Of a stretch of 50,771 bases of DNA, positions 12,510 to 39,525 are shown in pieces. The position numbers and the translations under genes are program-made. The DNA is from Bryobacterales bacterium (GTDB taxonomy: Bacteria > Acidobacteriota > Terriglobia > Bryobacterales > Bryobacteraceae), in assembly GCA_025462945.1 (NCBI GenBank), contig JAOAPO010000494.1:1-50771 (forward strand), written 5' to 3'. Below the pieces are notes generated by a model. That model was not told the origin of the DNA. It did not search any database and was given only the letters and a program-made list of their open reading frames with translations. Within the stretch, counting starts at the first letter, position 1, and each line of letters starts with the position of its first letter.

Positions 12510-13237
12510 CGGCCCGGCTGATTGCGGGCCTCTGTCTGCTTGTCTCGGGTGCGTATGCACAGGGTGACACGGAAATCTACTACGTGGGGCTGCTACGGCC
12601 CGCGGCTGAGCGGAAGCTGTTGTCGCGCGAGGACGGCGAACGACTCCAGGCAGCGCACATGGCGCATATCCGCAAGATGGCAGAAGACGGGTATCTCGTG
12701 GCGGCAGGGCCGTTCGAAGACACGCCGATTACGATCAGCGGAATTTTCATCCTCAAGGCTGCATCGCTCGAAGAAGCTCGGCGGATTGCGCGGCAGGATC
12801 CGACCATTGTGGAAAAGCGGAATACGATTGATGTGCACCCGTGGCGAGGACCGGCCGGGATCGGCGAGGAGTACCGGCGGCTGCATCAGGCTGATCCGAA
12901 GACTCCGGAGGGCATGGGGTTGCACCCGATTGTCTTCATTCGGCCTGGGCCGAAGTGGAATAGTCAAGGACCGGGAAACGCTTCCGATCTCGTGAACGGC
13001 ATGACCACCAGTTCGCAGATACTCGGTCGGGCAATCAATGGGATGAGGCGGACCGGGAAGCTGGTTGCGGGAGGTCCGGTTGAGGGTGAGGATGACCTTA
13101 AGGGCATCCTGATTTTTGACCGAATTTCGCTGAAAGTGGCAATGCAGGCGGTCAGCGAGCAACTTGAGCTGCAGAATGGCATGATGAAGGCCGAGTACCA
13201 CGAATTCTACTCGGCTGCGCACGTGTTCCCGTGGTGA
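12506..13237 (+). CDS. Secreted protein with two tandem YciI-like domains
   Basis: Signal peptide MTARLIAGLCLLVSGAYAQ. Two repeats of the YciI-like pattern (..HMAHIRKMAEDGYLVAAGPFED..GIFILKA.. and ..GKLVAGGPVEGEDDLKGILIFD..). ATGA overlap with the upstream gene. Confidence 0.55.
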   Translation: MTARLIAGLCLLVSGAYAQGDTEIYYVGLLRPAAERKLLSREDGERLQAAHMAHIRKMAEDGYLVAAGPFEDTPITISGIFILKAASLEEARRIARQDPTIVEKRNTIDVHPWRGPAGIGEEYRRLHQADPKTPEGMGLHPIVFIRPGPKWNSQGPGNASDLVNGMTTSSQILGRAINGMRRTGKLVAGGPVEGEDDLKGILIFDRISLKVAMQAVSEQLELQNGMMKAEYHEFYSAAHVFPW

Positions 13238-13256
13238 GTTGGCAAAATCGAAATGA

Positions 13257-13265
13257 TGGTATATT
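13257..13265 (+). promoter_or_regulatory. Extended -10 promoter element TGgTATATT (candidate antisense-RNA promoter, copy 1)
   Basis: TGG TATATT at 13257..13265, with a possible -35 TTGGCA at 13239..13244 (15-nt spacer). The same TGG-TAATTT element sits at the equivalent place in copy 2 (38132..38140, minus strand). Confidence 0.45.
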
Positions 13266-13317
13266 GTGTTACTGAGAGGGCCAGTGGGAGGCACCACAAG
13301 CCCTCTTCGGAAGAAGA

Positions 13318-13401
13318 CTACAGTTCAAGTTCGAACTTAATCTTCGTCCGTCGTTTCCGCCGTAAAAGCAGAAGAACGATCAGTAAAGTAAGAAAGATCA
13401 T
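13318..13401 (-). CDS. 27-aa mini-protein MIFLTLLIVLLLLRRKRRTKIKFELEL (hydrophobic N-terminus, Arg/Lys cluster, amphipathic tail); type I toxin-like
   Basis: Below the ORF-track size cutoff. ATG at 13401 is preceded by AAGGAGGG with a 5-nt spacer. A paralogous 26-aa ORF in copy 2 has the same architecture and a conserved KIK tripeptide encoded by different synonymous codons. Confidence 0.5.
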   Translation of the reverse strand: MIFLTLLIVLLLLRRKRRTKIKFELEL

Positions 13402-13413
13402 CTAGACCCTCCT

Positions 13414-13520
13414 TTCTACTCCGGTAGATTTGCGGACCCCGCCCTACACGGCGGGGTTTTGCATTTTCGGAGTCCGAAGCTCCTGATGCAAACCGCCTCT
13501 CCTCAAATCGCGGAGTAGAA
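13414..13520 (-). promoter_or_regulatory. Conserved multi-helix 5' leader RNA of the mini-ORF, copy 1
   Basis: Closing helix ttctactccg/cggagtagaa ends directly at the SD. Internal hairpins are tttgcat..ggagC(UUCG)Gactcc..atgcaaa and ccccgcc-gtgtag-ggcgggg. The same helices can be drawn in copy 2. Confidence 0.5.
13436..13467 (+). terminator. Rho-independent terminator (plus strand), candidate end of the antisense RNA
   Basis: The 7-bp GC-rich stem ccccgcc/ggcgggg has a 6-nt loop and is followed by TTTTgcaTTTT. Confidence 0.55.
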
Positions 13521-13684
13521 CAATCAGAATAGCCATTGCAGGGAGAAATGAAAATACCTCTCTCCCGAGGTGGTAGTACATCTCCCAGCACCGGCTCTTC
13601 GTCTGATATCCTTGTTCTTTCAGGAGCTTAAAGCACCCTCGACGGGGTGCGCCTAAGCTCAAACCTCCGGAGCCACTTCTCAAC

Positions 13685-14434
13685 ATGTCAGGCCACTCTA
13701 AATGGGCGACGATCAAGCACAAAAAAGCCGCAACAGACGCTAAGCGCGGCAAGGTCTTCACCCGACTCATCAAGGAAATTCAGATCGCAGCTCGCTCCGG
13801 CGGCGGCGACCCGGACGGTAACCCCCGTCTGCGTACGGCGATCACTGCCGCAAAAGCGGTGTCCATGCCGGCGGACAACATCAAGAAGGCCGTTATGCGC
13901 GGCACTGGCGAACTGGAAGGCGGCCAGATCGACGAAATCATGTTCGAAGGCTACGGTCCCGGTGGCGCGGCAGTCCTCGTGATGACGGCTACCGACAATC
14001 GCAACCGTACGGTGAGCGAGATTCGCCACGCGTTTGGCAAGCAGGGCGGCAACCTGGGTGAACAGGGCAGCGTGGCCTGGATGTTCGAGCGGCGCAGCCA
14101 GATTGTCATCGACAAAGAGCACGCGGAAGAAGACGCGCTGATGACTCTCGCGCTGGAAGCGGGCGCTGAAGACCTGAAAGACTCCGGTGACACGTGGGAA
14201 ATCCTCTCCGATCCGTCGAATCACGATGCGGTGCTCGAAGCCATCAAGAAAGCCGGAATCGAAGTTGTCTCCGCGGAAGCAGTCGCGATGGTGCCTAAAA
14301 ACCTGATGCAGGTGGAAGGGAAACATGCGGCAGCGATGATGCGGCTCACGGACTTCCTGGAAGAACACGAGGACGTGCAGAACGTCTACTCGAACTTCGA
14401 TATCTCCGAGGAAGAGCTCGCGAAACTCGCCTGA
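13685..14434 (+). CDS. yebC: YebC/PmpR-family DNA-binding transcriptional regulator
   Basis: [32 protein letters not shown]... is the hallmark N-terminus. 249 aa. Confidence 0.9.
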
Positions 14435-37793: not shown

Positions 37794-37884
37794 TGTTTAC
37801 AACTCTATCGCGCGTTGAAGTAGTACTACTTTTCTTTTCAGCAGGGGTATGGTGATCCTGCTCCGGACCCGCTACGATGCTTAG

Positions 37885-37987
37885 TTTCTACTCCGGTCTT
37901 GCAGAGGTGAAGTTTGCAGGAGCATCCGGACTCCAAATGCAAAACCCCGCCTCACGAGCGGGGTCTGCAAATCTACTGGAGTAGAAA
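37885..37987 (+). promoter_or_regulatory. Conserved multi-helix 5' leader RNA of the mini-ORF, copy 2
   Basis: The 10-bp perfect closing helix tttctactcc(37885-94)/ggagtagaaa(37978-87) can extend by G.U and G-C pairs. Inner helices are ttgcaga/tctgcaa, tttgca..ggag..ctcc..tgcaaa and accccgc/gcggggt. The SD AAGAGG follows immediately. Confidence 0.5.
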
Positions 37988-38125
37988 GAGGTGACTGCTT
38001 ATGTTGCTCTCGATGTTGTTCGTCGGTCTGTTAATACTCAGGCTGCGGCGGCTCAAAATCAAAATCGACTTCCGATTCTGATGCCTGACCGTAAGAGGGT
38101 CAGTGTTCACCGCACTGGCCCTCTC
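37937..38125 (-). ncRNA. Predicted cis-antisense RNA of about 190 nt, fully overlapping the mini-ORF (antitoxin-like), copy 2
   Basis: Extended -10 TGGTAATTT on the minus strand (38140..38132), only 5 nt past the MBOAT stop. 5' hairpin 38124..38094. Minus-strand terminator gaccccgc-loop-gcggggTTTTgcaTTT ends near 37935. Confidence 0.35.
38001..38081 (+). CDS. 26-aa mini-protein MLLSMLFVGLLILRLRRLKIKIDFRF; type I toxin-like, paralogue of 13318..13401
   Basis: ATG 38001 is preceded by AAGAGG with a 9-nt spacer. Layout is a 13-residue hydrophobic N-terminus, an Arg cluster, then KIK plus an alternating hydrophobic/charged tail, as in copy 1. Confidence 0.5.
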   Translation: MLLSMLFVGLLILRLRRLKIKIDFRF

Positions 38126-38142
38126 AACATCAAATTACCATA

Positions 38143-39525
38143 CTAAAACTGAAAATACACGAACGGAATTGCAAGATCTGACGCCGTGAACAGCTCCAGT
38201 GCGAGCAAGGCCAGGACGGCTGCCGTTGTACGCACCCAGACCGGTCCGTTCGCCAGCCTGCCGAGAGCCTGACCGTACTCCTCCGCCAGTGCAACACCCA
38301 GCGCCGCAAGCGCAAGCCAAAGATTCGCCCCGGTGAGCAGGCTGGTCCCGGCAACGCCGGCGAACATCTCACGAAGCACAAACAGCGCCGCAGGCAGACC
38401 CTTGGCCCGGAAGAAAACCCAGCCGACATTCACGATCAGGAACGTGACCACCGTCAACGGGATCCGGGCAAGCCCGCGCTGCGCTCCCCTGCCCCAAACG
38501 ACGCGCTCGACCGCCAGGACGGCCCCGTGAAAGCCCCCCCAGATCACGAAGTTCCAGCTTGCGCCGTGCCACAGACCGCCCAGCAGCATAGTCGCCATCA
38601 GGTTCGCCCAGGTCCGAATACTGCCGCGCCGGTTGCCACCCAGCGAAATGTAAATGTAGTCTCGGAGCCAACTCGACAGCGTGATGTGCCAGCGCCGCCA
38701 GAACTCCGTGACCGACGCCGCGAGATAAGGCCGCCGGAAGTTCTCCGGGAAGTGGTACCCGAACAACAGCGCCACACCGATCGCGATGTCCGTGTAGCCC
38801 GAAAAATCGAAGAAGATCTGCAGCCCAAACGCGATCGTCCCCGACCATGCCTGCAGCAGCCCCGGCATCGCCTGAGGGTTCGCGAAATACGCATCAGCCA
38901 CCATGGCAAACCGGTCGGCGAAGACCATCTTCTTGACGAGGCCTGTCAGGATGAAGTAGACACCCTGATGCCATTCCTGAGCCGTCGGAGCACTCCAGTT
39001 GAAGTAGTCGTGGAAGAACTCCTTCGCCCGCACAATGGGCCCGGCTACCAACTGAGGAAAGAACGCCACGAAGAGCGAGTAGTCCACGTAGCTCTCGATC
39101 ACGGCCTGTTCGCCCCGATAAACGTCGATGACATACGAGATGCTCTGGAACGTGTGGAAGCTGATCCCGAGCGGCAGAATGATATCCATCGGCACCACCG
39201 GCGCCCCAGGATGCGCCACATTCAGCCACGTTTCGCGGAAGAAGTTGGCGTACTTAAACCACCCCAGCAGCCCGATATTCGCCGCCAGACTCAGCATCAG
39301 CGCCATGCGACGCGCCGGTCCTGCACGGCTCACAATCCACTTTGCCGCGAAGAAATCGATGGTGATCAGCAACAGGATGAGCACCACGAACTTCGGGTTC
39401 CAGGCCATATAGAAATAGAGGCTGGCCGCAAGCAGCAGATACCGGCGCGCGGGCTTCGGCAGCGCGTAATGCAGCCCCAGCACAACCGCCAGGAAGATCG
39501 CGAACTGAAGAGTAGTGAACAGCAT
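38143..39525 (-). CDS. MBOAT-family membrane O-acyltransferase (AlgI/DltB-like)
   Basis: 460 aa, polytopic. GISFHTFQSISYVIDVY, FFPQLVAGPIVRA, and the conserved His region RRWHITLSSWLRDYIYISLGGNR. Confidence 0.88.
   Translation of the reverse strand: MLFTTLQFAIFLAVVLGLHYALPKPARRYLLLAASLYFYMAWNPKFVVLILLLITIDFFAAKWIVSRAGPARRMALMLSLAANIGLLGWFKYANFFRETWLNVAHPGAPVVPMDIILPLGISFHTFQSISYVIDVYRGEQAVIESYVDYSLFVAFFPQLVAGPIVRAKEFFHDYFNWSAPTAQEWHQGVYFILTGLVKKMVFADRFAMVADAYFANPQAMPGLLQAWSGTIAFGLQIFFDFSGYTDIAIGVALLFGYHFPENFRRPYLAASVTEFWRRWHITLSSWLRDYIYISLGGNRRGSIRTWANLMATMLLGGLWHGASWNFVIWGGFHGAVLAVERVVWGRGAQRGLARIPLTVVTFLIVNVGWVFFRAKGLPAALFVLREMFAGVAGTSLLTGANLWLALAALGVALAEEYGQALGRLANGPVWVRTTAAVLALLALELFTASDLAIPFVYFQF

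Follow-up and report, generated by a model that had tools for sequence, protein, structure and literature searches.

The stretch of DNA analyzed here (the window) is the 50,771-nucleotide (nt) contig JAOAPO010000494.1 of a Bryobacterales bacterium (Acidobacteriota; assembly GCA_025462945.1), which carries two copies of an intergenic module resembling a type I toxin-antitoxin (TA) locus. Copy 1 lies in the 447-bp gap between the end of a YciI-like open reading frame (ORF) at 13237 and the start of yebC at 13685. An earlier reading of the letters alone, made without database searches (the sequence-only reading), had described in this gap a minus-strand mini-ORF preceded by a strong Shine-Dalgarno sequence (SD) with a 5-nt spacer, a structured leader, and a plus-strand extended -10 element and intrinsic terminator delimiting an antisense RNA of about 195 nt. 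All of these elements are present (Table 1). The second, diverged copy that it reported is truly homologous: copy 2, at about 37872..38140 on the opposite strand, shares with copy 1 a 79-nt core that is 85% identical (E = 5e-16), and a nucleotide profile search of the window found exactly two copies. Judged from sequence, the likeness of the two copies, together with the further relatives described below, is far beyond chance.

Table 1. Positions of the features of the two module copies in the window (H1-H4, leader helices; MFE, minimum free energy)
Feature	Copy	Positions	Strand	Remarks
Antisense RNA promoter	1	13239..13265	+	-35 TTGGCA 13239-13244; extended -10 TGgTATATT 13257-13265
Predicted antisense RNA, ~196 nt	1	13272..13467	+	both ends predicted from promoter and terminator positions
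Intrinsic terminator of antisense RNA	1	13437..13467	+	stem CCCCGCC/GGCGGGG 13437-13456, then TTTTGCATTTT 13457-13467
3' stem-loop of peptide mRNA	1	13272..13307	-	complement is the antisense RNA 5' hairpin
Mini-ORF (candidate toxin)	1	13318..13401	-	27 codons and stop; MIFLTLLIVLLLLRRKRRTKIKFELEL
SD	1	13414..13407	-	AAGGAGGG; spacer 5 nt
Predicted SD-sequestering hairpin	1	13390..13414	-	AAGGAGGGUC paired with GAUCUUUCUU in codons 2-4; MFE fold
Structured mRNA 5' leader	1	13414..13520	-	helices H1-H4 and inner hairpin
Leader H1	1	13511-13520 with 13414-13423	-	
Leader H2	1	13500-13507 with 13429-13436	-	
Leader H3	1	13486-13494 with 13455-13464	-	
Leader inner hairpin	1	13468-13485	-	
Leader H4	1	13437-13456	-	same stem as antisense terminator on + strand
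Candidate peptide mRNA promoter	1	13526..13554	-	-35 TTTTCA 13549-13554; 17-nt spacer; -10 TATTCT 13526-13531
Imperfect palindrome	1	13555..13578	.	upstream of sense -35
Sense -10 TACGAT and structured leader	2	37873..38000 (-10: 37873-37878)	+	
Leader H1	2	37885-37896 with 37976-37987	+	
Hairpin H4	2	37945-37963	+	
SD	2	~37987-37994	+	predicted SD pairing probability 0.99
Mini-ORF	2	38001..38081	+	26 codons and stop; MLLSMLFVGLLILRLRRLKIKIDFRF
mRNA 3' stem-loop	2	38095..38123	+	multiple compensatory changes versus ortholog at locus L061
Antisense RNA gene	2	37935..38140	-	extended -10 TGgTAATTT 38140..38132
Predicted antisense RNA	2	~38125 to ~37935	-	ends at terminator GGCGGGG... and TTTTGCATTT

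The module family and its mini-ORF

Relatives were collected with two exact-match anchors. The genome pattern, 21 specified bases from the core (GCAAATCTACNGGAGTAGAAAG) located directly 5' of the SD, gave 12 further copies on 10 contigs of 9 assemblies among species-representative genomes, and all the matches were in metagenome-assembled genomes of Bryobacteraceae, Bryobacterales or Terriglobia (Acidobacteriota). The second, independent anchor was taken from the leader (GGACTCC N1-6 ATGCAAAACCYCGC) and gave at least 120 loci in metagenome contigs. After duplicates, incomplete copies and one false positive (L130) were dropped, 99 unique complete modules remained.

A full-length, stop-free ORF with the same stop position was found in 83 of the 99 modules, so the routine interruption of the mini-ORF in homologs, which the sequence-only reading had named as evidence that would speak against it, is not observed; about 16 copies (about 16%) have decayed, through frameshifts, insertions, loss of the stop codon or truncation. 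The start codon is ATG in 74 of the 83 intact modules and seems to be TTG in several of the remaining nine, and in most modules an SD is located 4-9 nt upstream. Length differences between intact copies are whole codons, as in the 6-nt indel between the tandem copies of locus L005. The entropy at the three codon positions was 1.12, 0.55 and 1.15, position 2 being the most conserved, and the median pairwise ratio of nonsynonymous to synonymous substitution rates (dN/dS) was 0.46, the lowest among the six frames. On these comparisons the mini-ORF is, in our judgment, a real gene. It encodes 67 distinct homologous peptides of 24-29 amino acids (aa) with the pattern M-x-L-L-[MV]-L-(hydrophobic)-R-[KLT]-R-R-x-[KGR]-[LI]-K-[IF]-[EDQ]-[IF]-x-[LF], that is, about 13 hydrophobic residues, an RKRR-type basic cluster and an alternating tail of the KIEIDL type. 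The grand average of hydropathy of the N-terminal segment is +3.06 and the median net charge of the peptide is +4. By exact look-up only 1 of 10 peptides was found in a collection of 15 billion proteins, under the name 'hypothetical protein', indicating that gene callers overlook them.

At least two copies were present in 15 of 129 loci, mostly head-to-tail and 290-590 nt apart. The modules almost fill their intergenic regions, and the neighboring genes are unrelated; among the loci collected, only L061 shares neighbors with the window. At L061 an ortholog of copy 2 (peptide MVFSMLIVCLILLRLRRLRIKIDFKF) is found in the same gene context between flanking proteins that are ~85% identical, and conservation of this orthologous pair extends from the sense -10 to just past the antisense -10. 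A phage or plasmid origin was rejected, since there were no matches to the two patterns in viral contigs and none in plasmids.

Being multi-copy, filling intergenic regions and having hairpins at both ends are also properties of a miniature mobile element or of a repeat dispersed among intergenic regions, and the conservation would then reflect recent spread and not function. This origin is very improbable, as the copies are old and diverged (the ORF much more than the 85%-identical core) and have nevertheless preserved the reading frame, the promoter-critical bases and, through compensatory changes, the base-pairing. Moreover, the L061 ortholog was kept at the same site in a species of that protein divergence, and no terminal repeats or target duplications were seen, in modules that were not searched systematically for them.

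In both window copies the antisense transcript points to the next same-strand gene (yebC for copy 1 and a 720-aa gene for copy 2), a pattern that would also arise if the promoter, structure and terminator on that strand were the 5' leader or attenuator of this gene. Across the family, however, the upstream neighbor, which is the one on that side, is on the strand opposite to the peptide in 48 cases and on the same strand in 37 (37 of 85), and the downstream neighbor is opposite in 44 and same in 38. This near-random orientation excludes the antisense transcript as the leader of the next gene and is the ground on which we rejected the explanation as barely credible; furthermore, tandem arrays cannot all be leaders, and only one locus shares flanking genes with the window.

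The predicted antisense RNA gene and peptide mRNA

The motif TGnTAnnnT is located 43-53 nt past the stop codon, on the opposite strand, in 73 of the 83 modules. Conservation within the motif is that of an extended -10 promoter, with TG, TA and the terminal T fixed and free variation at the remaining positions. The TA was invariant in 51 of 51 diverse sequences that had been aligned without reference to it, and TTG at -35 was found with the canonical 17-nt spacing, at positions that had not been selected for; in copy 1, TTGGCA at 13239 was also reported by a consensus scan. The same scan independently reported the terminator of copy 1, with 10 pairs, 7 of them G-C. It is kept in all core-anchored homologs, with a compensatory change from CCCCGC/GCGGGG to CCTCGC/GCGAGG (C-G to U-A) in the L003/L105/L112 group. 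The antisense RNA predicted from these two elements in copy 1 has an MFE of -69.3 kcal/mol (z = -4.1), and would be fully complementary to a stretch of the mRNA that comprises the 3' stem-loop, the complete ORF, the SD and, in the leader, the 3' arms of H1 and H2, in agreement with the extent that the sequence-only reading had deduced. An antisense RNA gene with its own promoter, as type I systems have, thus appears to be present in silico. The antisense promoters adjoin or overlap the ends of neighboring genes: the -35 of copy 1 begins 2 nt past the stop codon of the YciI-like ORF, and the -10 of copy 2 ends 3 nt before the stop codon of a convergent 460-aa gene (window 38132-38145).

The 5' end of the peptide mRNA of copy 1 is predicted at the first base of H1 (13520), and the RNA from this base to the 3' hairpin has an MFE of -117.1 kcal/mol (z = -8.15). 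When the four-helix leader model was applied to a structure-blind alignment of 52 diverse leaders, 92.3% of the cells were paired, compared with 35-56% for slid controls, and 8 pairs were changed on both sides; the structured leader of the sequence-only reading is therefore found as a covarying multi-helix domain. H1 pairs the first bases of the mRNA, UUCUACU, with AGUAGAA directly 5' of the SD; at one of its pairs 42 sequences have U-A and 8 have C-G, and at another 28 have A-U and 24 have G·U. A tally of the leader helices gave 63 G·U cells against 24 A·C cells, indicating that the structure is selected on the sense strand, and the 5' arms of the helices lie beyond the antisense terminator. 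The default consensus of RNAalifold for the leader (ACUCC/GGAGU and UGCA/UGCA), which involves invariant columns with almost no covariation, was replaced by the covarying helices H1-H4. It was also observed that the GACUCC of the inner hairpin could pair instead with GGAGU in the 3' arm of H1 (13414-13485; alignment A2 columns 80-84 and 134-138). An alternative conformer may form in this way, in columns that are invariant or nearly so and hence give no covariation support.

The 3' stem-loop has 12 pairs, 11 of which show compensatory changes (RNAalifold, 51 sequences). Read on the sense strand, roughly 100 of its cells are G·U and roughly 14 are A·C, and its mean free energy is -24.4 kcal/mol on the sense strand versus -21.7 kcal/mol on the antisense strand, the sense form being more stable in 60 of 78 cases. 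The excess of G·U over A·C indicates that this is primarily the 3' stem-loop of the mRNA, although it can fold on the antisense strand too. The sequence-only reading had placed a stable hairpin at each end of the antisense RNA. The terminator hairpin is conserved as proposed, whereas the 5' hairpin is present but under selection chiefly as part of the mRNA.

Within the module, promoter and terminator are best defined for the antisense gene, and its RNA folds well (z = -4.1), which raises the question of whether this small RNA, acting in trans or with a dual function, is the functional product and the opposite ORF is secondary. Such a role is improbable: the start, stop, length and amino-acid pattern of the ORF are kept despite nucleotide divergence, the covarying G·U pairs of the leader helices and the 3' hairpin are found on the sense strand only, and the stretch past the antisense terminator is as conserved as the remainder.

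The most pronounced translational feature was absent from the sequence-only reading. In the predicted fold of copy 1 the SD is paired with codons 2-5, and SD pairing was predicted for all 59 family mRNAs examined, with a mean probability of 0.93 and with a partner located almost exclusively in nt 0-20 of the ORF. Synonymous recoding of codons 2-7 lowered the predicted SD pairing from 0.89 to 0.71, and the native sequence gave the higher value in 58 of 66 cases. In accordance with that, CTT, a minor Leu codon here, accounts for 40% of the Leu codons at positions 2-5, its share being 8% at the other ORF positions and 12% in the genes of the window. From these fold models, sequestration of the SD by codons 2-5 is predicted to be the strongest translational control feature of the module.

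For the sense promoter, 47 of 68 unique leaders have a candidate -10 of the form TAnnnT that precedes H1 by 5-6 nt (5 nt in copy 1), with G at -14 in 43 of the 47, and a TTTACA-like -35 is seen in many leaders. Another motif, GGAGRTAT(A/T)T, was rejected as the sense -10 because its final T is not conserved and it lies 17-18 nt upstream of the better TAnnnT; it rather fits the TTTACA-like -35. Just upstream of the sense -35, or overlapping it, many loci have a palindrome, (G)TA(A)TACCTCC-N8-12-GGAGGTAT, with the family consensus TACCTCC-N8-12-GGAGGTA. Its arms co-vary between TAC/GTA and TAT/ATA; it is missing from some subfamilies and is not conserved between copy 2 and its ortholog. The palindrome may act as an operator or form an insulating hairpin. 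In most modules a short G+C-rich hairpin, which differs in sequence from module to module, lies in the spacer of the sense promoter (for example in L006, L038 and L103).

Taken as a genetic unit, the locus very probably consists of a small-protein gene and a convergent antisense RNA gene.

The type I toxin-antitoxin reading and its closest known systems

A mechanism can be proposed from the sequence elements, which are observed directly together with their conservation, covariation and strand bias. Each copy would be an autonomous two-gene type I module, in which a sigma-70-type promoter would give an mRNA of ~250 nt for a peptide of 24-29 aa in which a hydrophobic N-terminus of ~13 residues is followed by a cluster of basic residues (RKRR type) and by an amphipathic tail at the C-terminus. 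The transcript would be stable and translationally silent by design: its first nucleotides would pair directly 5' of the ribosome-binding site (RBS) to form H1 and close the four-helix leader domain, the RBS would be locked in the local hairpin with codons 2-5, and a strong stem-loop would cap the 3' end. The convergent extended -10 promoter, just outside the 3' stem-loop, would direct synthesis of an antisense RNA of ~195 nt ending at the intrinsic terminator, the stem of which is the complement of the leader hairpin. Pairing of this RNA with the mRNA would block ribosome loading and produce a long duplex for RNase III. We infer that both RNAs are made, that the over-produced peptide would harm the membrane and that the antisense RNA would repress the peptide.

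Type I toxins are small (<60-70 aa), usually hydrophobic proteins that have a charged or bulky C-terminus and an mRNA of their own, and the mini-ORF appears to encode such a protein; sequestration of the RBS in the toxin mRNA, a common but not universal type I trait, is predicted here as well. The peptide features agree with the criteria that Fozo et al. 2010 used in searching for type I loci, namely tandem repeats, a short transmembrane-type peptide and charged or bulky C-terminal residues (PMC2887945). That the locus functions as a type I TA pair of a new family is in our estimate probable, and we consider 'TA-like' to be the right strength of claim for a reading that is supported at the sequence level. 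The sequence-only reading had reached the same view from the two window copies, and each of its predictions at this level survives across about 100 homologous modules.

Several points weigh against it. The homologs were gathered with exact-match anchors, so that the conservation of the anchored stretches is partly due to ascertainment, and the sequences are phylogenetically related and not independent. The hydrophobic segment, with a median of 13 residues, is short for a membrane-spanning helix, and the dN/dS of 0.46 is only moderately low. The evidence for the sense promoter is weaker than that for the antisense promoter, with TAnnnT in only 47 of the 68 leaders and a poorly conserved -35; no U-tract follows the 3' hairpin on the sense strand, which leaves the 3' end of the mRNA undefined. 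Finally, 75 of the 83 modules lack stops in the in-register antisense frame as well, as expected from codon composition opposite xTy codons. The antisense-strand ORF itself (in copy 1, 50 aa at 13253..13405) was rejected, as its openness is that expected from the codons and its ATG is upstream of the -10; in copy 1 there is no in-frame start codon downstream of the predicted antisense transcription start.

Non-toxic small membrane proteins are numerous, and a conserved protein of this kind, acting as modulator or structural subunit in some membrane process, with its synthesis adjusted by the cis-antisense RNA and the structured leader and with no role in addiction or growth arrest, would fit the peptide gene, the antisense gene, the leader structure and the short hydrophobic segment. 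We give this explanation a minor but real chance. The genes of small housekeeping proteins usually keep a constant partner or context in the genome, whereas the neighbors here are unrelated and randomly oriented; the copies are multiple, diverged and often tandem, with ~16% of them decayed; and the extreme, two-layer translational silencing predicted for the mRNA is typical of toxins.

The module has no counterpart in the libraries searched. The sequence-only reading had left room for a named RNA family such as the Acido-1 motif; no match to Rfam 15 (4227 families) was found in the whole window at the gathering score, and a permissive scan of 13100-13750 gave chance matches only, the best of them terminator-driven and scoring 28 bits against a gathering score of 55 bits. 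Six diverse peptides matched no Pfam family at E <= 10 and gave only sub-threshold NCBIfam matches to generic C-terminal sorting domains; PADLOC gave no match and the PDB nothing significant. Profiles of Hok/Gef, Ldr, Fst, Ibs, TisB and ShoB would be expected in the Pfam and NCBIfam libraries. Rfam covers 13 type I families (PMC8594479). The lack of any Rfam, Pfam, NCBIfam or PADLOC match indicates that the module does not belong to a described toxin or antitoxin family.

By layout, the closest system appears to be ibs/Sib of E. coli and its relatives, the known family in which the antisense RNA covers the whole ORF (PMC8594479). In both, a very short and hydrophobic peptide is combined with a cis-antisense RNA of ~110-200 nt spanning the whole ORF, and both are chromosomal, intergenic, tandem-repeated and overlooked by gene callers. 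However, there is no sequence or profile similarity between them, the phylum is different, and Ibs has neither the polybasic cluster nor the amphipathic C-terminal tail. Unlike Sib, the antisense RNA of the module would not be nested in the mRNA, as it would start a few nt outside the 3' stem-loop and end in the leader.

With aapA/IsoA of Helicobacter and hok/Sok the module shares a structured toxin mRNA, an intramolecularly occluded RBS and a 5' end held in a long-range helix. Sequestration of the SD and end-to-end folding of toxin mRNAs is a theme reportedly reviewed by Masachis and Darfeuille in 2018 and reportedly also studied in PMC6733600. In contrast to both systems, the predicted anti-SD of the module is the start of the ORF (codons 2-5), and its long-range helix connects the 5' end with the bases immediately preceding the SD rather than with the 3' end. 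The module lacks a counterpart of the mok leader ORF and has no sequence homology to either system.

Type I systems have been stated to be known only from Proteobacteria, Firmicutes and Tenericutes (PMC5367252, PMC12390103), and the first cyanobacterial candidate, msoT1/msoA1 of Microcystis aeruginosa, was reported in 2025 (PMC12390103). Like the module, msoT1/msoA1 is a type I candidate outside these three phyla, and was found by its layout (a small transmembrane-type peptide and a predicted antisense promoter and terminator) and not by homology. It is from another phylum and unrelated in sequence, and it has E. coli toxicity data and little comparative support, whereas the module has deep comparative support (about 100 modules) and is known from sequence alone. 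Our literature searches for acidobacterial type I systems found none, and in the main text of Fozo et al. 2010 (PMC2887945) Acidobacteria are unmentioned. This is consistent with the statement in the sequence-only reading that it knew of no such described system.

We lean, if only slightly, toward the module being the first type I family of Acidobacteriota, one that would be Bryobacterales-wide, multi-copy, common in the sampled metagenome contigs and invisible to gene callers, with an unusual toxin and an mRNA silenced both by the clamp between its 5' end and the SD and by the hairpin of the SD with early codons. The unusual build of the toxin would consist in a hydrophobic segment too short for a bilayer, followed by a cluster of basic residues and a tail resembling a beta-strand. 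Good support for such a family in Acidobacteriota would speak for bias. In many Bryobacterales genomes the family would add a small-protein gene that is not annotated, along with a gene for a small RNA, and the locus would provide a small, experimentally testable model for toxin expression under RNA control in a phylum for which hardly any RNA biology exists. The bases that matter in it, namely promoter positions, paired positions and anti-SD codons, are defined by about 100 natural variants.

Insertions and a rearranged copy

Two recurrent insertions were found within modules. The first, of ~70 nt, is bounded by inverted repeats (TTGACC...GGTCAA) and contains a palindrome at its center (TTATCCGGATAAG). 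In L041, L064 and L102 it is located in the leader, between the 5' arm of H3 and the inner hairpin, and in L013 it is inside the mini-ORF. It resembles a miniature mobile element belonging to these genomes. The second, of ~60 nt, starts with GGTGGATACCACTGTYCG and is located in the leader in L093, and between the core and the SD in L020 and L062, where it parts helix H1 from the SD and the ORF is still intact. At L007:7619-7834 the leader, the core and the SD are kept and are followed by unrelated sequence with no peptide ORF, and this copy appears to be a truncated or rearranged module.

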